A stretch of DNA of 64,000 bases from a candidate division TA06 bacterium (GTDB taxonomy: Bacteria > Edwardsbacteria > AC1 > EtOH8): positions 147,544-211,543 of the forward strand of contig JACRJI010000014.1 in assembly GCA_016235665.1 (NCBI GenBank), written 5' to 3'. Shown piece by piece: positions 1-20,183 of this stretch. The first letter of the stretch is position 1, and each line of letters starts with the position of its first letter. Under the pieces are notes generated by a model. It did no database searches, was not told where the DNA came from, and worked only from the letters and a program-made list of their open reading frames with translations. Both the position numbers and the translations under genes were made by a program.

Positions 1-243
1 GCTTTCCAGAACATTGTCTTTCTCATGGGGATTATCCTGGCCATGAACATTCCCCTGAATTGTCTCAGATTCAGTGCCGGGTTTTATACGTTTCTGTTCC
101 TGATAGCAGTGATCTGTATTACTTATCTGCCCCAGCAGATTCCGGCGTTGCTCGTTCCACGATATGGGACACAAACCAAGCTGAAATATATCTTGTATGT
201 AGCAATATTGGTCCTCTTTATTATACAACTTATCGTTGGATAG
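1..243 (+). CDS. hypothetical small membrane protein, possibly 5-prime partial (reading frame open to window edge)
   Basis: ORF 25..243 with hydrophobic segments; no in-frame stop between position 1 and the ATG, so it may continue upstream of the window. Confidence 0.25.
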   Translation, partial: AFQNIVFLMGIILAMNIPLNCLRFSAGFYTFLFLIAVICITYLPQQIPALLVPRYGTQTKLKYILYVAILVLFIIQLIVG

Positions 244-634
244 GAGCAGTATAATGAAATACATCAATGATTATTTTAAACCTATCAGCAAAGAAACGAT
301 CTTCAAAAAGCCAAAATCCGTCAGTGATCAAGGCTTTGCAAGCAAAAAAACCGTCATGAAGGAAACGAAGGACGGCATCGAACGGCACGTTGAGGAAAGC
401 ATCCTCCTTTCCGCTTGCGGTGAGGTAATCAAGGAAAGCGAGATCAGCGGACGTTGTGATGTTTGTGGCGGATACACTTGCCCAAAGCACATCTACCATT
501 GCCAGGCATGTCAAAAGACGTTATGCCTTCGGGATGTCCGGTTCTTAAAGGACAATGAAAACGAAAGCGCGTACTGCCCCGAACATTATACTATTGCTGT
601 ATATAACTATGACACCTGGACACGTCGCAAATAA
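236..634 (+). CDS. Cys-rich zinc-ribbon protein (CxxC...CxxC...CP), first gene of island operon
   Basis: C-terminal CDVCGG...CPKH...CQACQ...CPEH cysteine pairs; directly upstream of and coupled to the ATPase gene. Confidence 0.4.
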   Translation: MDRSSIMKYINDYFKPISKETIFKKPKSVSDQGFASKKTVMKETKDGIERHVEESILLSACGEVIKESEISGRCDVCGGYTCPKHIYHCQACQKTLCLRDVRFLKDNENESAYCPEHYTIAVYNYDTWTRRK

Positions 635-660: not shown

Positions 661-2358
661 ATGCTACTTTCTGAAAGAAAATCAACGTTCGATTCGGATC
701 CTTGCCTGCAGGCTGCTCTCCACATCATGGAACTGGCAAGGCAGACAGGTACAGAACGTGAGCTTTTCATCCTGCAGGCCCTAAAAGTGATCCGGGCATT
801 TCCGCAAAACCTCGGACTGATCCAGGGGTATGTCAGGAGCGTGGAGCGGAGGCTTTTGCCAAAGTTGATCAATGAAAAGTATCAAAGCCAGGTGCCGGAT
901 TCAAGGGTTTTTGGCGGGAATATCCACCTGGGAAATGTAGTTGAGAACAATGTTCCCGCCAGGATCACGACGGGACAGCTTAACCAGAACATCCTGATTT
1001 ATGGGAGGACAGGATCAGGCAAGTCGAATTTCAATATGCATGTTATCCCCCAGATTGCAGGGCTTGGGATAAAATGTGAAATATTTGATTTCAAACGGGA
1101 GTACCGGGACCTTTGGACATTACAGGATTGCCAGCCCATGATAGTACTCAATACCAGCAATGACAAATACAACCCGCTGGAACCAGTCGGGAATCCCAAG
1201 GGGTATAACCAGTTTTTCTGGGACATCTGCCAGCAGGATTTCAACATTCGCCCGGAAACTAAGCAAATGTTGATAATTTGTACCGACGAGTTGTATGCCC
1301 GTTTCGGGGTATACAACAATGGGAAATACTTTCCCACCTTATATGACCTCTATGATTACCTTAAAGAGAAGGCTGAAACGGCCAATCCCAAGATATTCAG
1401 GGGAATGGAAGTGATTCTGTCGATAATAAACCGGCTGGGCGCTATGGTTGATTGCAGTTCGGGATATGACCTCTCCGGTTTTAAAACGGTGTGCTATGAG
1501 GTGGATAACCTGAGTGAGGATTTAAGGTCCTGGATTATGAAACTGAGATTAAAAAAAAGCTACGAACAGGGTCTGAAATACAATCAACGGAATATATTGA
1601 GAAAAATTCTGGTTTTCGACGAGGCGAAGATGGTTTTTGGACAGAGCCGGATCGGGGAAGCGACCAACTATTTTAAGGATGCCATTACCCAGCAACGGGC
1701 ATTGGGTACCGGACTGCTTATTTCCGACCAGAACCCGTCGGAGTTGGCCGACTTCATCAGGAATAATGTCTATGGACAGGTCTGTTTTCATCTGGTCCAT
1801 CCTAAGGAAAGGCGGAACGCCGCACAATCTTTGGGTGGCACCGAGGACTTTGAATTGAAGATTGCGCGTTTGGCAATTCCCAACGCATATATTTCTCTGG
1901 GGCATTACCCGTACCCATTCCTGATGAGAATACCCAAAAGCAGGGTAACCTGGCATATCGGGGATGGAGAATTTGATCGTCTTATGCAGCCGGTAATATC
2001 CAGATTACAGTATATCCCCAGATACAAACCCGTTAAACCCGCTATTGTAATAACCCCAAAAGTCAACATACCGGAGAAACCAGCCAGCATTCCCAAAACA
2101 GACTCTACCGGAGATCTGTTTGAGCAATGGATAAATCTTTTAAAACATATTAAGGCGAATCCTGAAGACAATGTTTCGAAAATATACGATAAGCTGGGGT
2201 TGTCCAGAAGGAAGGGCAATTTGATCAAGGAACAGCTTTTGGAAAATTGTTTGATTGAAGAGGAGGTTGTCCATACCAAGGAGAGGAAACGGCCCCAAAA
2301 GCGACTAAAGCTCACTCTAAAGGGGGAGGAATATGTCAAAAGGCAAAGGCGGGCCTGA
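661..2358 (+). CDS. FtsK/HerA/VirB4-superfamily P-loop NTPase (DUF87-like)
   Basis: Walker A ILIYGRTGSGKS; Walker B hydrophobic run ILVFDEAKM; downstream LLISDQNPSEL sensor-like segment; 565 aa. Confidence 0.6.
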   Translation: MLLSERKSTFDSDPCLQAALHIMELARQTGTERELFILQALKVIRAFPQNLGLIQGYVRSVERRLLPKLINEKYQSQVPDSRVFGGNIHLGNVVENNVPARITTGQLNQNILIYGRTGSGKSNFNMHVIPQIAGLGIKCEIFDFKREYRDLWTLQDCQPMIVLNTSNDKYNPLEPVGNPKGYNQFFWDICQQDFNIRPETKQMLIICTDELYARFGVYNNGKYFPTLYDLYDYLKEKAETANPKIFRGMEVILSIINRLGAMVDCSSGYDLSGFKTVCYEVDNLSEDLRSWIMKLRLKKSYEQGLKYNQRNILRKILVFDEAKMVFGQSRIGEATNYFKDAITQQRALGTGLLISDQNPSELADFIRNNVYGQVCFHLVHPKERRNAAQSLGGTEDFELKIARLAIPNAYISLGHYPYPFLMRIPKSRVTWHIGDGEFDRLMQPVISRLQYIPRYKPVKPAIVITPKVNIPEKPASIPKTDSTGDLFEQWINLLKHIKANPEDNVSKIYDKLGLSRRKGNLIKEQLLENCLIEEEVVHTKERKRPQKRLKLTLKGEEYVKRQRRA

Positions 2359-2683
2359 ACACCAAAAGGCACAATGCCTTATAAGGGATTACTACCAGGC
2401 CCGGGGCATGGTGGCCGTTATAGAGGCTTTTCTTGGAAACAAGAATATAGATGTGTTGGTGCAGGATCCAGAGACTGGGCAGATCATAGCCATAGAATAC
2501 CAGACGACGATTAAACATGCTTTGGAGAATGTTCTGCTTGACCATGTTTTTTGTGACGAGGTGATTCTCGTTTCGGCCGATATCCGGGTGCTTGGGCAAA
2601 TGAAGCGGAAGATTGACGGGAACGGGGCAATTAACGGACAAAAAGTAAAATATAGGCTACTCAAGGAGTTTATTCCACAATAA
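2333..2683 (+). CDS. hypothetical 116-aa protein (possible degenerate PD-(D/E)xK-like fold)
   Basis: ORF with GGGGAGG RBS 6 nt upstream, overlaps ATPase stop by 26 nt; IDVLVQDPETGQIIAIEYQ resembles YraN-like nuclease core but is not diagnostic. Confidence 0.35.
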   Translation: MSKGKGGPEHQKAQCLIRDYYQARGMVAVIEAFLGNKNIDVLVQDPETGQIIAIEYQTTIKHALENVLLDHVFCDEVILVSADIRVLGQMKRKIDGNGAINGQKVKYRLLKEFIPQ

Positions 2684-2771: not shown

Positions 2772-3512
2772 ATGCAAAGAAAAACAATATCCCTGATTGT
2801 GGCAGGCAGTGGGGTGATCAAAGACCTGGCGATTTCTCCGGAAACGACGGTCCATGACATCATCAATCAGAACGGACTATCTGGCTATGCTCTGTCCAAG
2901 GGCAACGAACAGAGTCTCAGTCAGGAGGATAACATCTTCAATTCGGTCATGGATGGCGACGAGGTCTATGCATCGCCGGAGGATGTTTCTGTAGGCAGAC
3001 AACCCCCTGCCTCCCCCTTCGGGGGGAAACCGTCCTTCCAGTTTGAAAAGATAACTGGCATCCGGCAAACGGTAACCCACTCAGGAGTGACGGAGACCCG
3101 CAAGGTGGAGGTGGTCCGGACTAGAACGTATGATAAGACCCTATTTCTCAAAAAGCGGTCAGGGCTGCCCTATTGGATGAAGGCCGGTTGGTTTCAGACA
3201 AATGATGGATACAATGGGTGGTACCGGACTAAATACGGAAGTTGGAAGGGTTATATCCATCGGGATTATCAGGATTCCTACTCGTATTTCATCATCGATC
3301 CTCCGAGTGAAGTAAAAAATGGATCCCATGGAGCTTGTTTTTCCCACCGGGGAAACGGTAAATATCAAGTGCATTTTAGTGTCAAGCCGACGGATATCGG
3401 GGATGGTATTCTAACGGTTGAGAGACTTATTAGCGAATCATTCGGTCAAAAGAACCACAAGGCACATAGAGGAGGCTTTATATCATGTTTACGAAAACTG
3501 GGGCTTTTGTGA
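2772..3512 (+). CDS. ubiquitin-like (beta-grasp) domain protein fused through an FGG motif to a ~160-aa C-terminal domain
   Basis: N-terminal KTISLIVAGSGVIKDLAISPETTVHDII...DGDEVYA matches the ThiS/MoaD/ubiquitin beta-grasp pattern; linker RQPPASPFGG then C-terminal domain; strong AAAGGAGG RBS before ATG 2772. Confidence 0.55.
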   Translation: MQRKTISLIVAGSGVIKDLAISPETTVHDIINQNGLSGYALSKGNEQSLSQEDNIFNSVMDGDEVYASPEDVSVGRQPPASPFGGKPSFQFEKITGIRQTVTHSGVTETRKVEVVRTRTYDKTLFLKKRSGLPYWMKAGWFQTNDGYNGWYRTKYGSWKGYIHRDYQDSYSYFIIDPPSEVKNGSHGACFSHRGNGKYQVHFSVKPTDIGDGILTVERLISESFGQKNHKAHRGGFISCLRKLGLL

Positions 3513-3541: not shown

Positions 3542-4168
3542 ATGATTGAGCAGCAGATTGAGGCCCATATCACATTGTTAAAGGTAAAAGTAATTGCTCA
3601 CAGCGTTGTGGAGGTAAAAAACCTATGTGCTTCCATTTTAGACCTGCTGGAGCTTCACCGGATAGCGGCCAAGTATGGTTCGGTTGAGGACGAAAAAAGG
3701 ATTGTTTTTATAATTCCATCGCTTTTCCTACGGGATTGTTTAGATTACTTGAGGCAACAGGAGGAGGAATCGCTTCATTTCGTAACCGGAGTCCATATAG
3801 ATAATATTGTGATCCTTGACCGGCTTGTCAAACTGGAATTTGAAAAGCAGACTGTTGTCTTTGCCAAGGCTGATTCTACTTCGGTTAAAAATGCCTTGCT
3901 GGAACTGACGAGAAACGGTTATCGGCTTTTTGCATACTTTCATATCCATCCGGGCACCGGAGAACCAGCCACGCATCCTTCAAGTATCGATAAAAAGCTT
4001 GATGAGCTGTTGCAACGCGGAAAATATCAGGCAGTCGGTGCGATATTTAGTAGGGATGGTTACGCGCGGTTCTTCACCGACGGCAATTATGAAGTCCAAA
4101 TATACGGAAGGGGGGTGCAACAGATTGATGATAGAACTTTTAAGGTCGTTGAACCGGCCAAAACATAA
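3542..4168 (+). CDS. JAB/MPN (JAMM) metallo-isopeptidase
   Basis: JAMM-type motif FHIHPGTGEPATHPSSID (HxH...S..D); 208 aa; between Ubl and E1 genes. Confidence 0.7.
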   Translation: MIEQQIEAHITLLKVKVIAHSVVEVKNLCASILDLLELHRIAAKYGSVEDEKRIVFIIPSLFLRDCLDYLRQQEEESLHFVTGVHIDNIVILDRLVKLEFEKQTVVFAKADSTSVKNALLELTRNGYRLFAYFHIHPGTGEPATHPSSIDKKLDELLQRGKYQAVGAIFSRDGYARFFTDGNYEVQIYGRGVQQIDDRTFKVVEPAKT

Positions 4169-4187: not shown

Positions 4188-4934
4188 ATGGCCATGAGGT
4201 GTGAAGAAGACCGCAGGAATCTGACGGCCAGACAGGAAGTCGTTTTAGGTTTTGACCAGAATGTTATGAAAAGATTGTCCATATTGCAGATTGGAGCAGG
4301 TGGGCTTGGTGGAGAGATATGCCAGGGGTTGGTCCGAAAAGGCGTAGGGACCGTGAAGGTATTTGACGGGGATGTCGTCGAGCCATCAAACCTAACGCGA
4401 CAGAGGTTTTATCCAAAAGACCTTTACAGGAATAAGGCGTTGTCATTGGCTGGCAATCTTATGAAAGAGGCGATCATTAAAACTGAAATTATTGCTTATC
4501 CTTTCATGTTCCAACGGGCATTGGAGGAGGGGATGAATATGGATTGTGATATCGTGATTTGCGCCCCGGACAATGACGAAGTCCGGCGTTTTACGGCGAA
4601 GTATTTTCTCAATAAAGTGCCGGTTATATTTACGGGATTGGACCGGAAGGCAAATACCGGCTATGTTTTCATTCAGGAACCGGGCAAAGCTTGTTTCGAG
4701 TGTGCGATACCGTCTGCAAAAAGGAATAAAAGAGAACCGTGCCCGAATACTCCGGCAGTCATTGACTTGGTCAAGATCATTTCAGGTTTGGTCCTTTTTG
4801 CGGTTGATTCGACGGTAATGCATAGAAAACGAAACTGGAACTACAGACAAATATTCCTCTGCGGGTATATCCCCGAAATTATATGGACGGTTAAAAGAAG
4901 TAATAAATGTCAGATTTGCGGTACCAAATGGTAA
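4188..4934 (+). CDS. E1-like ubiquitin-activating / ThiF-MoeB family adenylyltransferase (minimal, ~249 aa)
   Basis: Rossmann ILQIGAGGLGGEICQGLVRKGVG, then FDGDVVEPSNLTRQ (E1/ThiF signature), CFEC...CQIC zinc pairs; start chosen 20 nt after JAB stop rather than the overlapping ATG 3930. Confidence 0.8.
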   Translation: MAMRCEEDRRNLTARQEVVLGFDQNVMKRLSILQIGAGGLGGEICQGLVRKGVGTVKVFDGDVVEPSNLTRQRFYPKDLYRNKALSLAGNLMKEAIIKTEIIAYPFMFQRALEEGMNMDCDIVICAPDNDEVRRFTAKYFLNKVPVIFTGLDRKANTGYVFIQEPGKACFECAIPSAKRNKREPCPNTPAVIDLVKIISGLVLFAVDSTVMHRKRNWNYRQIFLCGYIPEIIWTVKRSNKCQICGTKW

Positions 4935-5015: not shown

Positions 5016-5516
5016 ATGAAACCGCCATTAAGACAGGGAAGTGCGAATGACTTTCAGACACCAGCCCAAGCATTGCACCCGTTATACCAATATTTGAAAA
5101 AAGATTGGACAATATGGGAGTGTGCCCAGGGTAAGGGGAATATTGTCAGAGAATTACGGGCACGAGGGTGGAAAGTAATAGGCACAGATATATTAGATGG
5201 TCATGATTATTTATCTTATCTGCCGTCGAGATTCAATTGTATGATTACTAATCCTCCATATAGCATCAAGCAGCTGTTTTTAGAACGTGCATATTCTCTG
5301 CAAAAACCTTTTGCGTTTCTCTTGCCCTTGACCACATTTGAAACGAGAAAGCGACAGTATCTTTTTGAAAAATACGGGTTGGAGGTGATATTTTTCGATA
5401 AACGAATAAATTTTGAAACACCGAGCGGGAGAGGAACGGGAGCCTGGTTTGCGACGGCGTGGTTTACATGGGGTCTGAACATTGGCAAACAAATGACGTT
5501 TTGTAAATATGAATAA
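5016..5516 (+). CDS. small DNA methyltransferase, probably N6-adenine (phage Dam-like), NPPY motif
   Basis: ITNPPYS catalytic motif IV; 166 aa, size typical of phage orphan MTases. Confidence 0.6.
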   Translation: MKPPLRQGSANDFQTPAQALHPLYQYLKKDWTIWECAQGKGNIVRELRARGWKVIGTDILDGHDYLSYLPSRFNCMITNPPYSIKQLFLERAYSLQKPFAFLLPLTTFETRKRQYLFEKYGLEVIFFDKRINFETPSGRGTGAWFATAWFTWGLNIGKQMTFCKYE

Positions 5517-5733
5517 AGTGCGTACAATGGATCAACTAATTGACATAATAACCTTATCAAAACTCTTGAGCGTCAAGCCGATGACCATATATGGTTGGAT
5601 ACACGAGGGTGTAATTCCATATATCAAGCTTGGCCGGCTGGTGCGTTTCAGTGAAAAGGAAGTTCAAGCCTGGCTTAACAAGAAGAAACGAGAGGGACAA
5701 CCAGTAAAAGCAACGGATATAGATTTAACTTAA
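5509..5733 (+). CDS. AlpA/Xis-family helix-turn-helix excisionase-like DNA-binding protein
   Basis: LLSVKPMTIYGWIHEGVIPYIKLGRLVRFSEKEVQAWL matches excisionase/AlpA HTH pattern; immediately upstream of the integrase. Confidence 0.7.
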   Translation: MNKVRTMDQLIDIITLSKLLSVKPMTIYGWIHEGVIPYIKLGRLVRFSEKEVQAWLNKKKREGQPVKATDIDLT

Positions 5734-5802
5734 CTTGACATGGCAATAGGGTATAGGTTAACCCCAAAAGGTAATAATTCATTCATAAAGGAGGGAAGTG
5801 AA

Positions 5803-6861
5803 ATGCGTATATATAAAAGAAATGAGATTTGGTATTTGGACTACAATTATAAAGGCAAGCGATATCGTAAACGCGTCGGTAAATCCCAGAAAATGGCAGA
5901 ACTGGCACTTAAGAACATTGAGGTGAAAATTGTTAAAAAAGAGCATCTCGGCGTACAGGACGACAAAAAGATACTATTCGAGGATTTTACGACAAAATAT
6001 CTCGACTACGCCAAAGTAAACAAGTCCCCTAAATCATATTACCTCAACATAGGTAATATGAAAGCCATGCTGCCGTTTTTCAAAGGGAAATATCTATCCG
6101 AGATCACCCCTCAGGACATCGAGAGATATAAAGCAGAACGATCTTCGACGGTAAAACCAGCTACCCTTAACAGGGATCTTGCCTGCCTGCGGCATATGCT
6201 CAATAAAGCCATCGAGTGGGGATACCAACAGGTGAATCCGATGAAAGGGGTAAAACTCCTGAAGGAGCCTCCGGGGAGGTTGCGTTTCTTGTCCGAGGAG
6301 GAAATCAAAATACTACTGCATGAGTTGCCAGCAGGCTCAAAACTCATCGTACTGGTCGCGATGTACACCGGGATGAGAAGGTCTGAAATCCTCAATCTCA
6401 ATTGGAGCAATGTGGATTTGAAGAACAGGATCCTTGTCGTCGAGAAAACCAAGACCAATGAGCGGAGAATCATCCCTATCAACGATGGTTTGTATTCTCA
6501 GCTACATGAACTGTCCACAAGGAAAAAGAGCGAATTGGTATTTGCCGAATGTAGGATCAATTTACGGAGGAACTTCACAGATGCTTTGAAGAGGGCAAAT
6601 ATCAGAAATTTCAGATTTCACGACCTTCGCCACACCTTCGCGAGCTATCTTGTAATGAGCGGAGCCAGTATCAAAGTGGTCCAGCAGCTTCTCGGCCATA
6701 AGGATTTGAAAATGACGATGAGATATTCGCACCTTTCAAACGAACACCTCCAGGAAGCTGTTGGAAAGTTAAATTACACAAAACAGGATAAGATAGAACC
6801 GCAAACAGTAAGAGAAACCAGGAGCCGATATAAGTACAATCATATTATGTCCCTAAGGTAA
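5803..6861 (+). CDS. int: tyrosine site-specific integrase (phage integrase family)
   Basis: C-terminal HDLRHTFASYLV...LLGHKDLKMTMRYSHL catalytic box; N-terminal arm-type WYLDY..GKRYRKR; RBS AAGGAGGG before ATG 5803. Confidence 0.9.
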   Translation: MRIYKRNEIWYLDYNYKGKRYRKRVGKSQKMAELALKNIEVKIVKKEHLGVQDDKKILFEDFTTKYLDYAKVNKSPKSYYLNIGNMKAMLPFFKGKYLSEITPQDIERYKAERSSTVKPATLNRDLACLRHMLNKAIEWGYQQVNPMKGVKLLKEPPGRLRFLSEEEIKILLHELPAGSKLIVLVAMYTGMRRSEILNLNWSNVDLKNRILVVEKTKTNERRIIPINDGLYSQLHELSTRKKSELVFAECRINLRRNFTDALKRANIRNFRFHDLRHTFASYLVMSGASIKVVQQLLGHKDLKMTMRYSHLSNEHLQEAVGKLNYTKQDKIEPQTVRETRSRYKYNHIMSLR

Positions 6862-7790: not shown

Positions 7791-8462
7791 GTGATTTATA
7801 TGAGAAAAAGCATAAAACATAAGTATTCATCTCTACTTATCATTGAATGCGATTCAAATAAACTTCAGAGACAAAACATTGATATAGCAAGTAAGATTAA
7901 CGACCTTTTTCAAAAATTACCATTTTGTAAGCACAAATACATTCGTACGTTTGAGAAATCAGATTTATGCTTAAAAATAAATGAAATCTCTAAAGAACAT
8001 TACGATATTATTGTTTTAACAGGCCATACTTTTACTGATGGAGGGGGTAGGCCTGTCCGTTTCGATTTTGCAAGTGACTATAAACCAGAATTATCAGTCT
8101 TACCTTCTTTTTTAAATACATTTAAACCTAAATGTTTGATTATGGCTTCGTGTAAGGGGTCTCATTTTATTACCACGGATGTGATGTTTAATGGGATGCC
8201 AACACTAAAAGAAATATATGGCTCTCCGGTTTTGACAAATTCAAAACAACTTCAAATATTATTACTATTGATACCATATATTATATTCAGCGATAAATAT
8301 GATGACGGCATTTTATTTTTAAGCAATATTGTTAATTTTGTACAATCTGGAGGATATATTGTTAGGCATACACGTGCGGAATTTATAAATAAAAGACCGA
8401 TTAAATATATTCAACAAGAAATGTATGATTCTCTAAAAAGTATTTTAAGTAATAGTCATTAA
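7791..8462 (+). CDS. caspase-like (peptidase C14/CHAT-type) protein
   Basis: IIVLTGHTFTDGGG (His-Gly) and KPKCLIMASCKGS (compare caspase KPKLFFIQACRG) about 42 aa apart, matching caspase His/Cys dyad spacing. Confidence 0.5.
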   Translation: MIYMRKSIKHKYSSLLIIECDSNKLQRQNIDIASKINDLFQKLPFCKHKYIRTFEKSDLCLKINEISKEHYDIIVLTGHTFTDGGGRPVRFDFASDYKPELSVLPSFLNTFKPKCLIMASCKGSHFITTDVMFNGMPTLKEIYGSPVLTNSKQLQILLLLIPYIIFSDKYDDGILFLSNIVNFVQSGGYIVRHTRAEFINKRPIKYIQQEMYDSLKSILSNSH

Positions 8463-8478
8463 TAAAGGCACAACACAT

Positions 8479-9267
8479 ATGGCACATTATAGATATAATT
8501 CTCTAGAAGATTATTTAATATCTCAGCCCCTAACGGTTGATGGTGTTTTGGATGATGGATGGGGTGCCTCGTTTCCAGTTAAAGGGCGTGAAGTAGAGGC
8601 AACAATATTATTTTCTGACATTTCGTCATTCACTCGACGCACTCTTGATTTAACCCCTACGGAAACATTAATATTTGTCAACAATTTTTTCTCATGGATT
8701 ACAGCTGAAGCTTTAAGGGATAAACCAGCGATTATTGACAAGTATGTCGGTGATGAGATGATGATTGTATTTTCAAATGAGTTTGGGTCTAAAGATCATT
8801 TTGTCGATGCTATTCAAACCGCAAGGTGGATGGGAGAATATGACATACTTGATTTCCGTCCTCACATAGGAATAGCAAGTGGCCCCGTTATTATTGGCTA
8901 TGTTGGTACACCTGTTAAATATAATTGTTCTGTATTTGGTCATACCGTCGCATTAGCGAAGAGGTGTGCAGGGGTGAAAATGAGCGATACTAGTCCATAT
9001 ATGGTTTTCCCGACACGATCATGGCAGGGTCGTTCGTTTGAAGAAATAATTCCACTTGTGAAAATGAAGAAATCGGAAAGTGAATTTGTTGAATTACCAC
9101 AAAGCTGGAAATTAGCCCCAAGTCGTAAAGTCAGCTTAAACAATATTGGTGATGTTGACGTAATGGGCATTATAAATATGTTATTAACAGAACCATCACA
9201 GTCCGCAGTGGAAAGAGCAAAAGAATCGTTAACTATTCTTAAAGCCAATGGCAGTTGCAGACAATAA
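8479..9267 (+). CDS. stand-alone class III nucleotidyl cyclase (adenylyl/guanylyl-cyclase catalytic domain)
   Basis: ATILFSDISSFT (metal Asp), KYVGDEMMIVF (second Asp), RPHIGIASGPVIIGYVG, YNCSVFGHTVALAKR (Asn/Arg transition-state residues); only ~45-aa N-terminal extension. Confidence 0.7.
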   Translation: MAHYRYNSLEDYLISQPLTVDGVLDDGWGASFPVKGREVEATILFSDISSFTRRTLDLTPTETLIFVNNFFSWITAEALRDKPAIIDKYVGDEMMIVFSNEFGSKDHFVDAIQTARWMGEYDILDFRPHIGIASGPVIIGYVGTPVKYNCSVFGHTVALAKRCAGVKMSDTSPYMVFPTRSWQGRSFEEIIPLVKMKKSESEFVELPQSWKLAPSRKVSLNNIGDVDVMGIINMLLTEPSQSAVERAKESLTILKANGSCRQ

Positions 9268-9745: not shown

Positions 9746-10102
9746 GGGGGCGACAGGTTTCGACGGTAAAGAAAGGGTTTAAGTGGCATGCCGAGAAAGT
9801 CAGAGGGCTCGTTAAAATACTGGCAACGTCATAATTGACACTTACAACTACGCTCTGGCAGCTTAATTTTAGCTGCCATGCCGCTGCAGGTCCCCGCCTA
9901 TCGGATCTGCAAACGGCATCGCAAAGATGGGCTGGTCCGAGACGCCCGGCCCGGGCATTTCGGATGAGATCTTAGGGCTGCTCTCTTAAGGGATCGTGTT
10001 TGTGCGAGACTTTTAGGGAAAAGACCAAAACACAAAACAAGCATGTAGAGGCTTAGGTTCTTACCTTATCGGACGTGGGTTCAATTCCCACCGCCTCCAC
10101 CA
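9746..10102 (+). ncRNA. ssrA: tmRNA (SsrA), one-piece
   Basis: 5-prime GGGGGCGACAGGTTTCGACGG; 3-prime GGACGTGGGTTCAATTCCCACCGCCTCCACCA; acceptor GGGGGCG/CGCCUCC pairs; tag ORF ending ...AAC TAC GCT CTG GCA GCT TAA (NYALAA*). Confidence 0.9.
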
Positions 10103-10355: not shown

Positions 10356-12164
10356 ATGAATAAATACCTGATCATGGCCGGTCTTATTCTCTGCCTGGTC
10401 CAGCCGGGCCTGGCCCAGGTTATTGCCAACCGGGATTCCCTGGCCCTGGAGCAGCTGTTCGACAGTTTCTTCCGGGCATATGTGGCCCAGAACCCGGAGA
10501 CGGCCACCCAGCTGGGGCTGTCCCGCGGAATGGGCTATGAGTATGACCGGTCAAGTCTGGACGACATCTCCCCGGCCGGAGACCAGGCAAACATAGGGCT
10601 GTTGAAACAACACCTTAACCGGCTCAACAAGATCGACAGAAAGGCCCTGACCCCGGCCCAGCGCCTGGATGCCAGGATCTTTGAGTGGTGCCTGCGGTCC
10701 ACCCTGGACGGATATAAGTTCATTGATCAGGGATACCTGGTCAACCAGATGACCGGGCCGCATTTCCAGCCGGTGAACTTTTTGACCGGATATCACACCA
10801 TCGAAACCAGACAGGATGCCGAAGACTACCTGGCCCGGATGGAAAAGATACCCCTCAAACTGCAGCAGGCCGGGCAACGGGTGGAGTCTCAGGATAAAAA
10901 GGGCATCCGCTCTCCGGTTTTCATCGCCGACATGGTGATAGGGACCATCAACGAACTGGTGAGCCCCGGGGCGGAAAAGAACATCCTCTACCTTGACTTT
11001 GCCGGCAAGATAAAAAACATTCCGGGCATAGGTTCCTCTGAACAGGAGAGTTTAAGGCAACGGGCCGAAAGGATCATCTCGGAAAAGATCTATCCCGCCT
11101 ATCGGAAATATCTGGAGCAGGTCAAGGCCGTCCGGGCAAAATCCACCGATGCCGCCGGGGTCTGGAATCTGCCCCAGGGGGAACAGTATTACGCCCATTG
11201 CCTGAAGCAGAACACCACGCTTTCCCTGAGCCCCCTTGAGGTCCATAAAATGGGACTGGCCGAGGTCGAGGCCCTGCAGAAAAAGGGGCGGGCCCTGCTG
11301 GAATCCCTGGGAATAAAGGAAGGGGACAATTACGGGGACCTGGTGCGGCAGTACTGGGCATACTTGGACAGGTCCGAGATCAAGAACCAGATAGCCTACA
11401 ACGCCTCCGGCCCCTGGAAGAACCAGGTGATCAGGGATTACCAGTCATTCATAGACAGCGCCCTGGTAAAAATGCCGGAGGCCTTTGACTACCTTCCCAG
11501 GACCAAGGTCCAGGCCCAGCCTGTGCCGGAATTCAAGGAACAGGGAGGCGTCACCTATTACGAGCCGGCCTCGCTGGATGGCAAGCGGCCGGGGGTGTTC
11601 TTCGTCAACATGATGAACATGCCCAACAAGGCTATGATGAGGTCCCTGACCTACCACGAAACGGTGCCGGGCCACCATTACCAGCTGGCGGTGCAGCAGG
11701 AACTGGGAGGCAACAGGATGTACCGCAATCTTTTCTTCCTGACCGGTTTCGGCGAAGGCTGGGCCATGTATGTCCAGGAGCTGGCTTACGAGCTGGGCTG
11801 GCTGCCGGACATCTACTCCCGGATCGCCGAGGTCAATTCCCAGCTGTTCCGGGCAGTGCGGGTGGTACTGGACACCGGGATCCATCTCAAGCAGTGGAAC
11901 CGCGGGCAGGCCATGGCTTACATGGAGCAGAACCTGGGCTGGGCCTCGGGCACCGAAGTGGACCGCTACATCGTCTGGCCGGGCCAGGCCTGCTCCTACA
12001 CCCTGGGCCGGATGCACATCAAGCAGCTGCGGGAGAAGGCAAAAGAGAAGATGGGGCCGCGCTTCGATCTGAAGAAATTCCACCATCTGGTGCTGGAGAA
12101 CGGCAGCATGCCCCTGGACATACTGGGGAAAAAAGTGGACGATTACATCAAGGGCGGCATTTAA
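10356..12164 (+). CDS. secreted DUF885-like zincin metallopeptidase-family protein
   Basis: signal peptide MNKYLIMAGLILCLVQPGLAQ; HETVPGHHYQ HExxH-type motif; 602 aa. Confidence 0.6.
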   Translation: MNKYLIMAGLILCLVQPGLAQVIANRDSLALEQLFDSFFRAYVAQNPETATQLGLSRGMGYEYDRSSLDDISPAGDQANIGLLKQHLNRLNKIDRKALTPAQRLDARIFEWCLRSTLDGYKFIDQGYLVNQMTGPHFQPVNFLTGYHTIETRQDAEDYLARMEKIPLKLQQAGQRVESQDKKGIRSPVFIADMVIGTINELVSPGAEKNILYLDFAGKIKNIPGIGSSEQESLRQRAERIISEKIYPAYRKYLEQVKAVRAKSTDAAGVWNLPQGEQYYAHCLKQNTTLSLSPLEVHKMGLAEVEALQKKGRALLESLGIKEGDNYGDLVRQYWAYLDRSEIKNQIAYNASGPWKNQVIRDYQSFIDSALVKMPEAFDYLPRTKVQAQPVPEFKEQGGVTYYEPASLDGKRPGVFFVNMMNMPNKAMMRSLTYHETVPGHHYQLAVQQELGGNRMYRNLFFLTGFGEGWAMYVQELAYELGWLPDIYSRIAEVNSQLFRAVRVVLDTGIHLKQWNRGQAMAYMEQNLGWASGTEVDRYIVWPGQACSYTLGRMHIKQLREKAKEKMGPRFDLKKFHHLVLENGSMPLDILGKKVDDYIKGGI

Positions 12165-12287
12165 GAGAGGTTGCGCCCGGAAAAAATACCGTCCAAAGGA
12201 CCTGCCGAAACAGTTTCCCCCGGGTTGCTGTTTCGGCTTTTCTTTTTGCTTGTAATTAGAGCTTAAATTATATACAATTAAATGCTT

Positions 12288-12655
12288 ATCTAACTTGCTC
12301 AGGAAAAGTAGATAAAATAAACAGGTTTGGTAATAACGTAGATATTGCTCAATTATGTTCTTTTCTTTTTGCCCCGCCAAACAGAAAAGAACCAAAAGAA
12401 AAAGCTCGTCGCTTAAAACTTGTGGTGAGCGGGGTCGAACCACTCTCCGGGCCACGCTTACGCCCTGCCTACGTATAGCTTCGGCGGGCCCGCGCTGCGC
12501 TTCTCGTTGCCGGCGGGCTTGTCTGAACTCGGGTTTTGGCTAAGCCCTCAAACATGCAGACAAGCTTTTTCCGCCATCAACTGCGATGCTCACTGATCGT
12601 GATTCGATAAACTCATCACAAGTTTTTAACGCGACAACCGGGGTTGGCACCGGGT
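12288..12655 (+). repeat. dispersed structured repeat, copy A (MITE-like / ncRNA family)
   Basis: shares >85% identity blocks with five other copies (see findings); TIRs CTCAGGAAA...TTTCCTGAG. Confidence 0.8.
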
Positions 12656-12678
12656 ATACAACCAGTTTTCTTAGCTAA

Positions 12679-13287
12679 TTGGACAAACATATACAATTAA
12701 ATCATAAACAAAAATTACTGATACCAAACGTTATGTTAGCTCCACTTTTTACGGTAAAGAAGATCAAAAACAAAGGCCAGGGGCTTTTCGCCAGGGAATT
12801 CATCCCCCGGGGAACCATCGTGTTCTTTGAATGCCATAACTGCAAAGTTACGCCCAAGGCCAGTTTTCAAAAACTATTCCCCGCCCAAAAGGAAAAACTG
12901 CTGTTCCATGCATACACCGTCAAGAACGGCTCGGTGGTGATGCCCTGCGGCGACTCCAAATACATGAACCATTGCTGCGATTCCAACATCCTGGACACCG
13001 GGAAGGGATACGACATCGTGGTCCGGGACATCAAGAAAGGCGAAGAGGCCACCTACGACTACCGGGTCTTTTATGACCAGGACTGGGGATTCCAGTGCGC
13101 CTGCGGCTCCAAGAACTGCTGCGGCACTTTCCGCTGCCGGCACCCGCTGCCCCGGGGAGTGCGGGCCTTATGGGACAAGAAGATCAAGCCGGCCATAAAG
13201 CTGATCAACAAAGTACCTCAGCCGTTAAAGAACGAACTGATCTTGCATAATTCAAAACATAAAAGGCTGTTTAGCAACATGTCATGA
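12679..13287 (+). CDS. SET-domain protein (putative lysine methyltransferase)
   Basis: NHCCDSN (NHSCxPN-like), EEATYDY, post-SET CACGSKNCCG cysteines. Confidence 0.7.
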   Translation: MDKHIQLNHKQKLLIPNVMLAPLFTVKKIKNKGQGLFAREFIPRGTIVFFECHNCKVTPKASFQKLFPAQKEKLLFHAYTVKNGSVVMPCGDSKYMNHCCDSNILDTGKGYDIVVRDIKKGEEATYDYRVFYDQDWGFQCACGSKNCCGTFRCRHPLPRGVRALWDKKIKPAIKLINKVPQPLKNELILHNSKHKRLFSNMS

Positions 13288-13505
13288 TCATAAACCTTAA
13301 GATCGTCCCCAATGCCAAGGCCGAGAAGCTGGTAAAAGAAGCCGGCCGGTACAAGGTCTATGTCACTGCCCCGGCGGTGGACGGCAAGGCCAATCAAAAA
13401 CTGGTGGAGTTCCTGGCCGGGCATTTCAAGGTCAGAAAAACAGCCGTCACCATCCTCCGGGGCCAGACCTCGCGTCTGAAATTGGTGGAGATAAAAACCG
13501 AATGA
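13284..13505 (+). CDS. DUF167 (YggU-like) family protein
   Basis: KIVPNAKAEKLV...YKVYVTAPAVDGKANQKLVEFLAGHFKV...ILRGQTSRLKLVEI matches YggU/DUF167 pattern. Confidence 0.65.
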   Translation: MIINLKIVPNAKAEKLVKEAGRYKVYVTAPAVDGKANQKLVEFLAGHFKVRKTAVTILRGQTSRLKLVEIKTE

Positions 13506-14032
13506 AGACCATCAAATATTCCCGTCTTATCCTGATCTGCCTGACCCTGCTGGACGCAGGCTTCATCCTGCTCAGCGGGTTCATCATGCAAAGCCCGGTC
13601 CTGCTGATCAAACTTCTGGGTATCGTTGTCCTGTTTGCCGCCACCATGGGCGCGGCCCTGATCAGCCGGGAGTGGGTACGGCCGTCACAGGTCCGGGTCG
13701 AGGATGACCAGGTCATAGTTCAATGGAACAACTGGGAACTGCGGGGCCGGCTGGCGGAAAGGTCGTTCTCAGAACAAAAGCCCAAAATGCTCAGGCTCAA
13801 AGTCCTGGAATACAAGATCACCCTGTACCCGGTGGGGCCGATGTTCATCCTGGCCGGGCTTCTGGCGGAGCCCATCAGACAGCGGCTGCCCCGGCTGCTG
13901 GATAAGACGTTTTTTTATAACCGCGATAAACTGGTCTCTCAATTATCTCCAATCCCGGGAACCGCCGGGGTAATGCTGGAAATTCCGGTGATTTTACTGG
14001 GAAAAAGAAAGGTGAAAAAATGGCTTGGCTGA
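13502..14032 (+). CDS. hypothetical membrane protein
   Basis: two N-terminal TM helices; coupled to neighbours by 4-nt overlaps. Confidence 0.4.
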   Translation: MKTIKYSRLILICLTLLDAGFILLSGFIMQSPVLLIKLLGIVVLFAATMGAALISREWVRPSQVRVEDDQVIVQWNNWELRGRLAERSFSEQKPKMLRLKVLEYKITLYPVGPMFILAGLLAEPIRQRLPRLLDKTFFYNRDKLVSQLSPIPGTAGVMLEIPVILLGKRKVKKWLG

Positions 14033-15375
14033 AGAACATCTTCCAACGGGCCAAACCCCTGGCCTCAGGGCTGTATCATTACCGGGGACAAGAGGGCGAC
14101 CGGTTCTTCCGGCTGCACCTGCGGATAGAGCCCGACGCCCGGGGGGTGCTGGTGATCAACGCCTCCAAGATCCTGCACCTGAACCAGACCGCGGCCGAGC
14201 TGGCCAAGCACATCATAGAAGGCGACGACGCCAAAACAGCGGCGGAGCAGATGGTAAAGCGCTACCGGGGCGTGAAATCTTCGGTTCTGGAGAACGATTT
14301 CAACCAGCTCAAGCAGAAGATCTTCGCCCTGGCCTCCACCGACGACGTCTGCCCGGTGACCTATCTGGACATCAACCGGATCGAGCCCTTCGAGACCCCG
14401 GTCAGCGCGCCCTACCGGATGGACCTGGCCCTGACCTACAAATGCAACGACGCCTGCGGCCACTGCTACCTGCCCAAGGACCGGATGCCCCAGGAACTCA
14501 CCGCCCAGCAGTGGAAGCAGATCCTGTCGAAATTGTGGGATACCGGGATCCCCCACGTCTGCTTTACCGGGGGCGAGGCCACCCTAAGGCCGGACCTGGT
14601 GGACCTGATCGCCTATGCCGAGGAGACCGGCCTGGTGACCGGCCTTTTGACCAACGGCCGGAAACTGAAGGACAAAAAGCTGGTCAAGCAGATGACCGAA
14701 GCCGGCCTGGACCATTTCCAGATCACTTTGGAATCGCACCTGGCCTCGGTCCACGACAAGATGGTGGGCAGCAAGGGGGCCTTTGAGGACACGGTCAAGG
14801 GAATAAAGAACGCCGTGGCCTCGCCGGTCTACACCATCACCAACACCACCCTGACCAGGCTCAACGCCAAGGGCATGGAAAAGACCATGGAGTTCCTTAA
14901 AAAGCTGGGGATCACCACCATGGCCTGCAACGGGCTGATCTATTCCGGGCAGGGAGCCTCTTGCGGTCTGGGCTTCACCGAAGCGGAGCTGGTGCCGCTG
15001 ATGGAGAGGATCCGGGAAAAGGCCCGGCAGCTGGACCTCAAACTGATCTGGTACACGCCCACCCAGTACTGCCAGCTGGACCCGGTGAACCTGGAGCTGG
15101 GTGTCAAGACCTGCACCGCCGCCCGCTACAACATGTGCGTGGAGCCGGACGGCTCGGTCATCCCCTGCCAGAGCTATTTCGCCCCGCTGGGGAACATCCT
15201 GACCGACAGGTGGGAGAAGATCTGGAACGCCAAGCCGGCGGTGGATCTCCGCAACAAAACCTATTTGATGGACAAATGCAAGGGGTGCCAGAAACTGCCG
15301 CTGTGCGGGGGCGGGTGTCCGATATACAATACCCAGAATGAAGTGATATGCGTGGACAGCAAGTCTAACGCATAA
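14020..15375 (+). CDS. radical SAM protein with C-terminal SPASM-like Cys cluster
   Basis: CNDACGHC (CxxxCxxC) motif; C-terminal CQSYFAPLGNI...CKGCQKLPLCGGGCP cysteines. Confidence 0.75.
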   Translation: MAWLKNIFQRAKPLASGLYHYRGQEGDRFFRLHLRIEPDARGVLVINASKILHLNQTAAELAKHIIEGDDAKTAAEQMVKRYRGVKSSVLENDFNQLKQKIFALASTDDVCPVTYLDINRIEPFETPVSAPYRMDLALTYKCNDACGHCYLPKDRMPQELTAQQWKQILSKLWDTGIPHVCFTGGEATLRPDLVDLIAYAEETGLVTGLLTNGRKLKDKKLVKQMTEAGLDHFQITLESHLASVHDKMVGSKGAFEDTVKGIKNAVASPVYTITNTTLTRLNAKGMEKTMEFLKKLGITTMACNGLIYSGQGASCGLGFTEAELVPLMERIREKARQLDLKLIWYTPTQYCQLDPVNLELGVKTCTAARYNMCVEPDGSVIPCQSYFAPLGNILTDRWEKIWNAKPAVDLRNKTYLMDKCKGCQKLPLCGGGCPIYNTQNEVICVDSKSNA

Positions 15376-15433
15376 CTGGGGCGAAGAAAAAAAGGAGCGG
15401 TTGTTGACCGCTCCTTTTTACGTTTGTCTGTTA

Positions 15434-16300
15434 TCAGAAATTCCAATTCACTCCAGCGTAAGGCCCATGCAGGGAAGGCCCTCGATAGATCATGGCCGCA
15501 TGATACCCGAATTTCAGCTCGATCCTTTTCACAAAGTACGAGTAATAGGCGCCGCAGTCGTGGTAGGAGGTTCCGGTCTCGGGGAAATAATTATAATCGT
15601 AGCCCAGGGTAATGGCCCCGCGATTGTCGGTGAATATCTTCCATTCGGTCCCGATCAGGGCTGCCGATTGGCCGTAGGCGCCCTTGAGCCAGCGCCAGCC
15701 CAGGTGGTTCCGCCAGATCACGTATTCTCCCAGGGCCTTGCGCAGGCCGAGCTTGATACTGGTATTGTGAAATTGGTACAGTCCCCCTCCGGACAACCGC
15801 TCCCGGTATTGATCATACGAAGCCCCGAGAACGAAGCTTCCGGCGTACAAGTCAAACCCCGTCACCGCGGTCGGGATGTCACGGTAGGTGTGCTGGTATC
15901 CCGTATTGACGGTGAAATAAGCGGCCGGCTGGCAATCCATCATTGCGGTAAAAGAGGAAACGGAATAATACGGATAGGGGCCGTAATTGGGCCCGGGCAG
16001 GCTGCAGTATCCGGCCACGCATGCCTTGAGGATGATCTTGGGAATGAAGAAGACAAGCTCGCCCCAAAAACTTTCCCCTTCATTGCATTCATCGGTGTCC
16101 GGGGACCGCTCTTGGCCGGATGTACTATCCCTCTTGCTCAGACCTTTCTCAAAACCGCCCAGCTTGCTGCTGCTGGAGTCGGGGCTCTGGGCAAAGGCCG
16201 CCGAGGTGCAGATAAGGAAAAGCCAGGTCAGTATCAGTATATGTCTGTTTGTGTTTTTCATATCTTTCTTGGGCAGACAAAGTGAAAGGCGGGCAAACAC
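15434..16300 (-). CDS. putative outer-membrane beta-barrel protein
   Basis: signal peptide, alternating aromatic/Gly-rich beta-strand pattern, C-terminal ...VNWNF. Confidence 0.5.
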   Translation of the reverse strand: MFARLSLCLPKKDMKNTNRHILILTWLFLICTSAAFAQSPDSSSSKLGGFEKGLSKRDSTSGQERSPDTDECNEGESFWGELVFFIPKIILKACVAGYCSLPGPNYGPYPYYSVSSFTAMMDCQPAAYFTVNTGYQHTYRDIPTAVTGFDLYAGSFVLGASYDQYRERLSGGGLYQFHNTSIKLGLRKALGEYVIWRNHLGWRWLKGAYGQSAALIGTEWKIFTDNRGAITLGYDYNYFPETGTSYHDCGAYYSYFVKRIELKFGYHAAMIYRGPSLHGPYAGVNWNF

Positions 16301-16337
16301 CGCCTTTCATTGTCATTGTTCGCTATGTTATTCCAGC

Positions 16338-19300: not shown

Positions 19301-20183
19301 GGCGCAGATCCAGCTTCCACAGCCTTTTGGCGGCTTCCAATCCGGGCAAGGCCTGCTGTTTCTTCAGGTAGAGCTGGATACTCAAGGCCAGGGCGCCGAT
19401 GTTGTCAGGTTCTTTTTCCATAAGGTTCTTTAACCGGTCTATTACCGGCTGGGGGTCCTGGGCCTTGGCCGCTTCGGAATAAAGTTCCAGGGCTTTTTCG
19501 TTCTGGCCGGTCTTCAGCAGAACGTCGCCGTAGCGCATGGCCACTTCGGTCACACCGGCTCCGGTGGCGGCTATCTGAAAGGCGGCCTCGTTGACATGGG
19601 GATGATCTTCCGGGGATTGTGCCGCCACGGCATCCAGCAGGTCAAAGGCCGGAATAGGCTGGCCCTTGCGGTAATAAAGCAGGGCCAGGCTTAAAAGCAC
19701 CCCCATGTCCTTGGCCCTGGTGCCGGCCGGTTTGGCCGGTCCCTGGTAGCGGTCCAGGGATTCCTTGATCTTGCCGTAGCGGGAAAGCATGGCGTCGACA
19801 TCCCGGTCGGGCAGGGTCTTGAGAATTTTAACGGCCGGCTCGATGTTGCGCCGGGAGACGTTCATCTCAAAGGCCAGGTCGCCCAGATCAGACGAGCGGG
19901 TCCCGTTGTAAAAAAGTTCCTCGGCCGATGCCAGTACTTCCTTGGAACGCGAAGGCACCAGGCTGACGGCGTTCTTTAAGGCGGCGGCGGCATCCCGGCC
20001 TTTTTCATCGGCTTGATGAGCCCCGGCCAGGGCGGTAAGCAGTTCAAAGTCCTCGATATTGTTCTTGAGGCCAGAGGCCAGCAGTTCGGCTGCCTTGCCG
20101 GGCTTGCCTTCGGTCCGCAGTTTGTCGGCCTTCTGCAGTATCTGCTCCTTGGAAAGCAGGAAAAAATCGGCTAAGGGAGACAT
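16338..20183 (-). CDS. large tetratricopeptide-repeat (TPR) protein, 1281 aa
   Basis: recurrent A..Y..LG..Y...G.Y..A TPR units throughout. Confidence 0.8.
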   Translation of the reverse strand: MSPLADFFLLSKEQILQKADKLRTEGKPGKAAELLASGLKNNIEDFELLTALAGAHQADEKGRDAAAALKNAVSLVPSRSKEVLASAEELFYNGTRSSDLGDLAFEMNVSRRNIEPAVKILKTLPDRDVDAMLSRYGKIKESLDRYQGPAKPAGTRAKDMGVLLSLALLYYRKGQPIPAFDLLDAVAAQSPEDHPHVNEAAFQIAATGAGVTEVAMRYGDVLLKTGQNEKALELYSEAAKAQDPQPVIDRLKNLMEKEPDNIGALALSIQLYLKKQQALPGLEAAKRLWKLDLRHRETILAQLREILKLDPQNTDGYMFMGDCALEASKTDLAMTSFARVAELAPELLSQVLSRYHMILEKSPGNFEAATRIIDAYSAAGQTDQVVKSLKEMVSKDATLVDLALEKLNGLLQKNLDQPLALEFLAECYLLRTELLKAARVYQYLAGLGSEWLEKALPKMQGLLAKEFDPALAPPLMELLIKNKRLTEAVMLGAELGKRNPAGWPEFLPLLDSVSPQADLQFNQNLAKLCQSLEQQGQDQPAVQLVKAAAWARSGDHPAAVALFLKLHQQPGLLAPAKASLVELAREFPQSGQLQLTLAEMHQRDAEPAPMAAALLAAASSDKSLLPQVSLKLQELLRQQPDDLQLQLLQMELLYQQRLLEKAFDQANIIVAKWPGTGSAKAYLRLGQIYLEKGELTKAGGGLMKASELDGTLSDEALLNINKLLEVDNTSLPGHYARAKVMLHLKQYDRSLDELLFVTQREPRWAEKILADIKDIQTADPVNHRALMADAQINMVLQNYGPAASALSQALELAPETADQVVAFYRQMLAKNPDQPQVKMALAKSLVVKDSLDEAVALIEQSLSKDAALAEPAVGLLRQVLQRDKENVAGLYLLSRIYAQRNASEQSVEMLKQILDLTEDQSAEVASRLQAIIDQFPQAAPARYLLADLQCRAGHYDLALAEYEAVVKLLPEDRPKVLESLAQVLEHNPNQAEVIFFRARLLAEAGDIKSSIEGLVRVSELDPSRRVVAAAAIERMMAQHRDMPEIHEALGIIYFEMGKFPQAKDLLSGAVKMVEDPERRTRVLFYLAESYLALRQEEKAEEIMDQVRKLNPDADEVFRALRRFNLRRMQVEVDKSYQALQDAPDDEFRKLDLAGKLVGVGKHDTAINLLAFKPQDKETAGRRLLLLARAFLGRGEAVSALEVLRAVPLAEHPFSRFQMDVCYLLGQCYEYLGNYAAAVAAYRMIYLDQTDFRDVKRRMEQASGLAVLKELGQRSTALEALA

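Follow-up and report, generated by a model that had tools for sequence, protein, structure and literature searches.

A putative ubiquitin-like modifier fused to its own E2-like domain and encoded beside a JAB peptidase and a minimal E1 in a candidate division TA06 bacterium

The Ubl-E2 gene and its family

The stretch of DNA analyzed here (the window) spans 64,000 nucleotides of contig JACRJI010000014.1 of a candidate division TA06 bacterium of the Edwardsbacteria lineage (GenBank assembly GCA_016235665.1). Close to its start lies a cassette of six genes that encode, in this order, a Zn-finger protein, an FtsK/HerA-type ATPase, a small protein, a fusion of a putative ubiquitin-like modifier (Ubl) to a putative E2, a JAB peptidase and a ThiF-type E1 (Table 1). 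The fusion protein, the subject of this study, comprises in an AlphaFold2 (AF2) model the same three parts as in the original prediction made from the DNA sequence alone, namely a beta-grasp domain, a linker and a C-terminal domain.

The open reading frame (ORF) of the Ubl-E2 fusion is a real gene and not a chance ORF, because a 246-amino-acid orthologue with 61% identity is found in a separate metagenome-assembled genome of Candidatus Edwardsbacteria and because the six-gene order is kept in all seven independent loci of the clade (L001, L005 and L008-L012). The start codon, ATG at 2772, is preceded eight bases upstream by AAGGAGG. Five further relatives share 35-43% identity, while a profile search of 1.84 billion cluster representatives (E<=1e-3) identified 955 relatives, fused and split, at 50% clustering. 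The Ubl-E2 domain order is shared by the window protein and at least 64 of 156 representatives. Scans of the fusion protein with Pfam, PADLOC and NCBIfam gave no match, and the family has no model in any of these databases. Where a source gives its members a name at all, they are labeled "hypothetical protein," apart from two stray labels of "predicted acyl esterase," and no description of the family was found in literature searches.

Table 1. Features of the locus, with positions in the window.
Feature	Position	Strand	Description and evidence
Ubl-E2 precursor gene (putative)	2772..3512	+	246 amino acids plus stop; ORF, ribosome-binding site, orthologues, synteny, profile-search relatives
Ubiquitin-like beta-grasp domain	2772..2996	+	Residues 1-75, ending at conserved Val74-Gly75
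Gly75 codon	2994..2996	+	Predicted C-terminus of mature Ubl; putative site of JAB cleavage and E1 adenylation
Variable linker and N-terminal extension of E2 module	2997..3167	+	Residues 76-132; contains FGG at 3021-3029
UBC/E2-like core	3168..3455	+	Residues 133-228: short helix, four-strand meander, short helix, hairpin, long helix
Candidate active site	3327..3374	+	His186 (3327-3329), Cys189 (3336-3338), His201 (3372-3374)
JAB/JAMM metallopeptidase	3542..4168	+	208 amino acids; invariant JAMM residues; weak Pfam Prok-JAB match (E 0.013), below threshold
Minimal ThiF-type E1	4188..4934	+	248 amino acids; Pfam ThiF 6.3e-26, above cutoff; Cys185 codon 4740-4742
Cys-rich Zn-binding protein	236..634	+	132 amino acids; first cassette gene; syntenic in 6 loci; Cys conserved; weak zf-AN1 match (E 0.017)
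FtsK/HerA-superfamily P-loop ATPase	661..2358	+	565 amino acids; Pfam DUF87 3.2e-6; PADLOC mad8 4.6e-15; NCBIfam HerA, CedD, VirB4-like; syntenic in all clade loci
Small conserved protein	2333..2683	+	116 amino acids; H...E...D...ExQ pattern; synteny; 8-sequence alignment; sole family match CoiA_nuc, weak (E 0.065)
Excisionase-like helix-turn-helix (HTH) protein and tyrosine integrase	5509..5733, 5740..6861	+	Pfam HTH_17 9.5e-12; Phage_integrase 4e-37

The N-terminal ubiquitin-like domain

In the AF2 model of the whole protein, residues 1-70 are folded, with a predicted local distance difference test (pLDDT) score of 67-89, and adopt the beta-grasp fold of ubiquitin-like modifiers, structurally nearest to the ubiquitin/ISG15 type. 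The Ubl stretch DGDEVYASPEDVSVG (...YASPEDVSVG) ends at Gly75. This column is Gly in 121 of 129 aligned Ubl domains, with no conserved column beyond it, and Gly75 is invariant in the alignment of relatives A1. The following residues 71-132 score below 50, and the linker varies in both length and sequence among homologues. A loose [IVL]x[IVL]xGxR motif about 34 residues ahead of the E2-like core was found in 23 of 139 homologues, compared with 2.5 expected, and at this place the window protein has only ITGIR. In distant fusions (P0055, P0076, P0099 and P0110) the linker is hydrophobic and resembles a transmembrane helix; in lineages with such linkers the E2 might be membrane-anchored after cleavage.

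The original prediction placed cleavage by the adjacent JAB after an FGG within this linker. The sequence RQPPASPFGG-K and some 160 residues after it are both present in the ORF, although RQPPASPFGG begins directly after VSVG and not ten residues later, and the position first given for it, 3001-3033, is a few bases off, as FGG is residues 84-86. Cleavage at that place, after Gly86, would release an active modifier of residues 1-86 with a Gly-Gly end, and eukaryotic ubiquitin also ends in Gly-Gly. Gly-Gly occupies the same place in three of the four closest relatives (FGG, SGG and LGG). The fourth, however, reads SGA, the next clade has Gly-Gly straight after VSVG (VSVGxGG) and the more distant fused homologues have no Gly-Gly at all, and FGG is clade-specific. 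The homologue alignment that had been suggested as a check on FGG thus locates family-wide conservation only at Gly75, which is the outcome named beforehand as speaking against cleavage after FGG, and residues 76-86 lie outside the folded beta-grasp domain, at pLDDT below 50.

The stand-alone Ubls of a split sister family, described below, also argue against an FGG site. Their ORFs read ...FASTKAEVG and stop after 3-6 further, variable residues (e.g., IAVCA, VLPLCA or TWA), with no Gly-Gly there. As the stand-alone Ubl ends only 3-6 residues past the Gly that aligns with Gly75, the modifier is probably made with a short removable tail. These tails (loci L013-L092) very often end in Cys-Ala after AEVG, a semi-conserved dipeptide (as in IAVCA and VLPLCA). 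A single Gly is also used in the Type I Bub system, where the JAB domain of BubCD cuts the Citrobacter Ubl-E2 fusion protein BubAB immediately after the conserved Gly229, as determined by Edman sequencing (Ye, Gong, Chambers and Corbett, 2024, PMC11601596). Given the conservation of Gly75, the short tails of the split Ubls and the cut in BubAB, the site of JAB cleavage and E1 activation is likely Gly75. Release of the modifier at Gly86 is quite improbable as the general rule, and a cut there is possible in the window's own clade.

The C-terminal E2-like domain

The C-terminal part of the protein (residues 122-246) was remodeled using 50 diverse stand-alone homologues, which gave a mean pLDDT of 87 and values of 95-98 throughout the core. 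The model shows the helix, four-stranded antiparallel meander, active-site loop and crossover helix of the UBC/E2 fold. The fold check suggested for residues 90-246 supports the idea that this part is a divergent E2, at least in its modeled residues 122-246. It had also been taken for one domain of 160 residues; about 160 residues are indeed present, but the conserved part covers about 95 of them (133-228) and stands behind a variable stretch of about 57.

Conservation was counted over 152 domains taken from the profile search. Cys189 and His201 are each retained in 149 of the 152 (98%) and His186 in 135 (89%), while the other conserved positions of the core include Trp140 (100%), two Gly (99-100%), Pro177-Pro178 (92-97%), Phe190 and a GI...E motif in the long helix (94%). 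The motif IIDPPSEVKNGSHGACFSH, in which a candidate Cys had been pointed out, is present and that Cys is Cys189, so the expectation that it would be conserved was borne out. Counting from the end of strand 4, Cys189 comes after 14 residues, and the long helix begins 20 residues beyond it; the corresponding spacings of the catalytic Cys of UBE2D2 are about 16 and about 14. Because both residues fall in the same region between strand 4 and the long helix, Cys189 is modeled as the putative equivalent of the E2 catalytic Cys. In the operons of class 6d, since renamed Bil, the E2s do not have the classical His; an absolutely conserved His is found instead on the C-terminal side of the Cys (Iyer et al., 2006, PMC1779556), and the Cys189...His201 pattern appears to be of this kind.

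At the sequence level the relationship to E2s is not detectable. The likening of PP...H.AC to the HPN-Cys region found no sequence support, as comparison of the C-terminal domain profile with human UBE2D2 by hhalign returned a probability of 0.3%, i.e., no relationship, and Pfam UQ_con and Prok-E2_A-E had no match at E<=1 among 51 family members. Neither an HPN motif nor sequence-profile membership of the UBC/E2 superfamily was found in these comparisons. Several accepted bacterial E2s likewise have no HPN (PMC1779556). A search of the PDB with the same profile by hmmsearch returned only the papillomavirus E2 transcription factor (E 0.032) and PeiR, which were judged spurious. The papillomavirus "E2" is unrelated to the ubiquitin E2.

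The domain was alternatively proposed to be a cargo or target delivered by conjugation. This possibility is disfavored because the E2-like domain also occurs as a stand-alone gene next to genes for Ubl, JAB and E1. Another alternative is that the domain is a non-catalytic UBC fold, similar to ubiquitin E2 variant (UEV) or RWD domains, or that His186, Cys189 and His201 form a zinc site. On this view the domain would serve as an adaptor, or the Ubl would be attached to it first, with conjugation performed by the minimal E1 itself, as happens in the E2-independent archaeal SAMP/UbaA systems. We consider this alternative unlikely. Conservation of a Cys and a His at 98% is typical of an active site, and the bacterial 6d/Bil E2s too lack the classical His and conserve one on the C-terminal side of the Cys (PMC1779556). 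Furthermore, the "6e inactive E2" later proved to be catalytically active (PMC11601596). Sequences with duplicated domains point the same way. In P0024, P0042 and P0125 a hydrophobic segment at the N-terminus is followed by the E2-like domain twice in tandem, and in the first copy of P0024, aligned by eye, His186, Cys189 and His201 are all lost while the rest of the signature is kept. As read from the sequences, the first copy in the three proteins still aligns as the same domain without the three residues, and it is improbable that folding needs them; their joint loss from a retained domain suggests that they are functional rather than structural. The tandem copies of P0024 recall UEV-E2 pairs.

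JAB peptidase and E1

As had been noted, a JAB gene lies directly downstream of the Ubl-E2 gene and the cassette contains no separate E2 gene. The JAMM site of the encoded JAB, E...HxH...Sx2D (Glu76, His134, His136, Ser147 and Asp150), is invariant in 29 of 29 JAB sequences, and the motif is intact. The E1 consists of a single ThiF domain (residues 23-203); the ORF listing starts it at an upstream TTG, and the ATG given in Table 1 agrees with its homologues. It carries both the GAGGLGG Rossmann motif (GxGxxG) and the crossover-loop Cys of ThiF/MoeB/E1 adenylyltransferases. This residue, Cys185 (PCPxTPA), is in the crossover-loop region and is found in all 50 distinct sequences, with no conserved Tyr there, while a CxxC at 169/172 is found in 47 of the 50. 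The PADLOC E1-E2 models match the window E1 only via their E1 half. ThiF and MoeB have a reactive Cys in the same crossover loop, and the reactive Cys of UBA5, Cys250, is also found in this loop (PMC11601596). The invariant Cys of the E1 and that of the E2 suggest, at the level of conserved residues, a thioester relay between the two proteins.

The minimal E1 is also compatible with another reading, in which the fusion is never cleaved, the beta-grasp domain works in cis as the Ubl part of an E2-like protein, and the JAB and E1 act elsewhere, e.g., in sulfur-carrier chemistry of the ThiS/MoaD type. The E1 is minimal and ThiF/MoeB-like, its best NCBIfam matches being ThiF and MoeB, and many proteins of eukaryotes carry a Ubl domain that is not cleaved off. 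We judge this reading very improbable, and a sulfur-carrier role for the module was considered and rejected. We favor instead, at a probability of roughly 0.62, that the protein is a precursor in which a Ubl (residues 1-75), a disordered linker and the Ubl's own E2 (core 133-228) are made together, processed by the JAB and used by the E1.

Split sister family and genomic context

The split sister family consists of 80 loci from soil metagenomes. In them a separate Ubl gene overlaps, at its stop codon, the beginning of a stand-alone E2 gene, and genes for JAB and E1 come next. The separation of Ubl and E2 into two genes indicates that the C-terminal domain of the fusion is an independent component of the cascade. 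The sister module comprises a TrwB/FtsK-like ATPase, Replic_Relax, a double-Zn-ribbon (DZR) protein, a tyrosine integrase, a small protein, DUF2958 (in most loci), Ubl, E2, JAB and E1, in this order, and is conserved in 25-26 of 26 long loci, with nothing conserved past the E1 gene. Pairwise comparison of the accessory proteins of the window (ATPase, Zn-finger protein and small protein) with those of the soil module (ATPase, DZR and Replic_Relax) revealed only P-loop-level similarity, and the two gene contexts are analogous but not demonstrably orthologous. A gene for an FtsK/HerA-type ATPase accompanies the Ubl/E2/JAB/E1 module without exception, genes for a Zn-ribbon protein and a tyrosine integrase do so in most cases, and the partner sets also hold either a nuclease-like or a Replic_Relax protein.

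In four of the fused loci, i.e., the window, L005, L009 and L010, genes for an excisionase-like HTH protein and a tyrosine integrase follow the E1 gene, and in L005, L009 and L010 the integrase gene abuts a tRNA gene. In L005, L009 and L011, no convincing att-type direct repeats turned up between the tRNA gene beside the integrase gene and the opposite end of the cassette. Searches of IMG/VR viral contigs and of PLSDB plasmids yielded no relatives. The module is consistently carried by chromosomal integrative elements. In the window it belongs to a low-GC island (32-46% compared with 55-60%) that extends from position 1 to about 9700 and ends at a transfer-messenger RNA (tmRNA) gene, ssrA, at 9746-10102 (+). 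This gene, with the tag peptide DTYNYALAA, is located exactly at the boundary with host-like DNA, and the island is on its 5' side, which is not the usual geometry of insertion at a 3' end.

Several genes beside the module were also noted. The Zn-binding protein is, speculatively, an adaptor or E3-like factor, and the 116-amino-acid small protein is possibly a PD-(D/E)xK-like nuclease. The nature of the ATPase is ambiguous between HerA (defense/repair) and a conjugative translocase of the VirB4/TraG/CedD type: in PADLOC it matches mad8 of the MADS system best, and in NCBIfam similar E-values are given by HerA, CedD and the CD1110 VirB4-like family. Between the E1 and excisionase genes, a 166-amino-acid ORF (5016-5516, +) contains ITNPPY, an instance of the NPPY motif known from N6-adenine DNA methyltransferases. 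Neither Pfam nor NCBIfam matched it, PADLOC gave only a faint match (mad2, E 0.025), and the orthologous loci lack it. The segment of lowest GC content (7791-9267, +; 32-35%) encodes a 223-amino-acid protein with no family match, followed by a 262-amino-acid class III nucleotide cyclase (Guanylate_cyc 1.1e-9), and may be a separate two-gene signaling or defense unit between the integrase and tmRNA genes.

Most likely, the module serves the mobile element, either as defense cargo or in the element's own life cycle. The cassette of L001 lies among genes for KAP NTPase, Schlafen/AlbA_2 and SMC-like proteins, a neighborhood that looks like a defense island. In the chromosomal variant L093, on a 4.37-Mb chromosome, the JAB is fused to the E1 as in BubCD, and the genes directly downstream of this fusion (11735-19649) encode ParB_N, MT-A70, a PLD-SNF2 helicase and an Eco57I/MmeI-type restriction-modification protein, which are defense-type cargo on the same element. 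A more tentative idea, which we find possible but doubtful, is that Ubl, E2, JAB and E1 are not antiphage cargo but an intrinsic core function of widespread and previously undescribed compact chromosomal integrative elements. The gene set of such elements would include an FtsK/TrwB-like ATPase, Replic_Relax or a small nuclease-like protein, a Zn-ribbon protein, a tyrosine integrase and sometimes DUF2958.

Comparison with known systems

Modifiers translated as N-terminal fusions are well known in eukaryotes, where ubiquitin precursors (ribosomal protein fusions and polyubiquitin) are cut by a peptidase that frees the modifier and exposes its C-terminal Gly. The window protein resembles these precursors in its N-terminal modifier, whose beta-grasp fold is nearest to that of ubiquitin/ISG15, but here the modifier is fused to its cognate E2, the neighboring gene supplies the peptidase, a JAMM metalloprotease, and there is a single conserved Gly in place of Gly-Gly.

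The closest known system is Type I Bub (6E.1), whose operons encode BubAB, BubCD and BubE (Ye, Gong, Chambers and Corbett, 2024, PMC11601596). Like BubAB, the window protein is a Ubl-E2 fusion. In Bub, however, the oxyester chemistry involves an invariant Tyr in the Cys-free crossover loop of the E1 and Ser333/His335 of the E2 (PMC11601596), whereas the window E2 has a Cys (149/152) and a His in place of Ser333/His335 and the window E1 has the invariant Cys185 (50/50) and no conserved Tyr in its loop. Other differences are that DUF6527/BubE (PF20137) was not detected in Pfam scans of all proteins of the cassette and of the sister module, that JAB and E1 are encoded by separate genes and not as a BubCD-like fusion, a form found only in the related L093, and that the window protein has a single beta-grasp domain and a long linker. 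The partners of the module also differ (FtsK/HerA ATPase, Zn-ribbon protein and integrase), and its E2 has no detectable sequence similarity to the Pfam Prok-E2 models. The locus is thus not a member of Type I Bub, because it has no BubE/DUF6527, a Cys for the Ser of the E2 and a Cys for the Tyr of the E1 loop. The conserved residues suggest that the main mechanistic difference from Bub would be a Cys/Cys thioester relay.

The Bil (6d) system consists of BilA (Ubl), BilB (E2), BilC (JAB) and BilD (E1) (Iyer et al., 2006, PMC1779556; PMC11601596; PMC11601603). The locus appears to share with Bil the four activities of Ubl, Cys-type E2, JAB and E1 and the presumed thioester chemistry, and the Cys189/His201 pattern of its E2 agrees with that of the 6d E2s, in which the HPN His is missing and the conserved His comes after the Cys. 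The E1 of Bil is a large IAD-AAD-CYS protein, in contrast to the single adenylation domain of 248 amino acids in the window. Bil has Ubl and E2 as separate proteins, with no fusion mentioned in the descriptions consulted, whereas they are fused in the window and split in its sister family. The gene neighborhoods are different, and no sequence-level match was found. The locus is therefore not a Bil system on the basis of E1 architecture.

In Type II cyclic oligonucleotide-based antiphage signaling systems (CBASS) with Cap2/Cap3, and in 6A-MBL and Pycsar, the E2 is fused to the E1 and there is no Ubl, the modifier being the CD-NTase itself. The window cassette has neither a CD-NTase, cyclase or effector nor an E2-E1 fusion. 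Because of the missing CD-NTase and E2-E1 fusion, it is not a CBASS.

Proposed mechanism

From the conservation described above and the precedents of Bub and Bil, we infer the first four steps of a possible mechanism. The adjoining JAMM peptidase would first cut the precursor after Gly75, yielding a Ubl with a C-terminal Gly and a separate E2. The minimal ThiF-type E1 would then adenylate Gly75 and load the Ubl onto the crossover-loop Cys185 as a thioester, from which it would be passed to Cys189 of the E2, with assistance from His186 and His201. Finally, the E2 would transfer the Ubl to Lys residues of targets, in the choice of which the Zn-finger protein may help. The JAB may, in addition, reverse the conjugation. 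Synthesis as a Ubl-E2 fusion would yield modifier and E2 in a ratio of 1:1 and hold the modifier inactive before processing. Judging from their sequences, we propose that Ubl, E2, peptidase and E1 together constitute a complete set of components for ubiquitination-like modification in bacteria, borne by integrative mobile elements.

Implications

The bacterial ubiquitination-like pathways, i.e., CBASS Cap2/3, Bil and Bub, are a young field in which few architectures have been characterized. The principle of the window protein is not new, as Type I Bub already has a Ubl-E2 fusion with JAB processing. The locus adds to these pathways a large family (955 clusters at 50% identity) missed by current annotation resources, and joins the precursor logic of Bub with the Cys chemistry expected of Bil and eukaryotic cascades. 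With a 75-amino-acid Ubl, an E2 core of about 95 amino acids and a 248-amino-acid E1, its parts are the smallest so far, which makes it an attractive minimal model for thioester transfer from E1 to E2 and an intermediate form for relating the oxyester (Bub) and thioester systems. If the module were a core function of the elements, a thioester-type cascade would modify the DNA-processing proteins of the element or host factors and thereby control excision, transfer or establishment. A key question posed by the strict linkage to integrases and FtsK/HerA-type ATPases is whether ubiquitin-like conjugation takes part in the life cycle of the mobile elements themselves.
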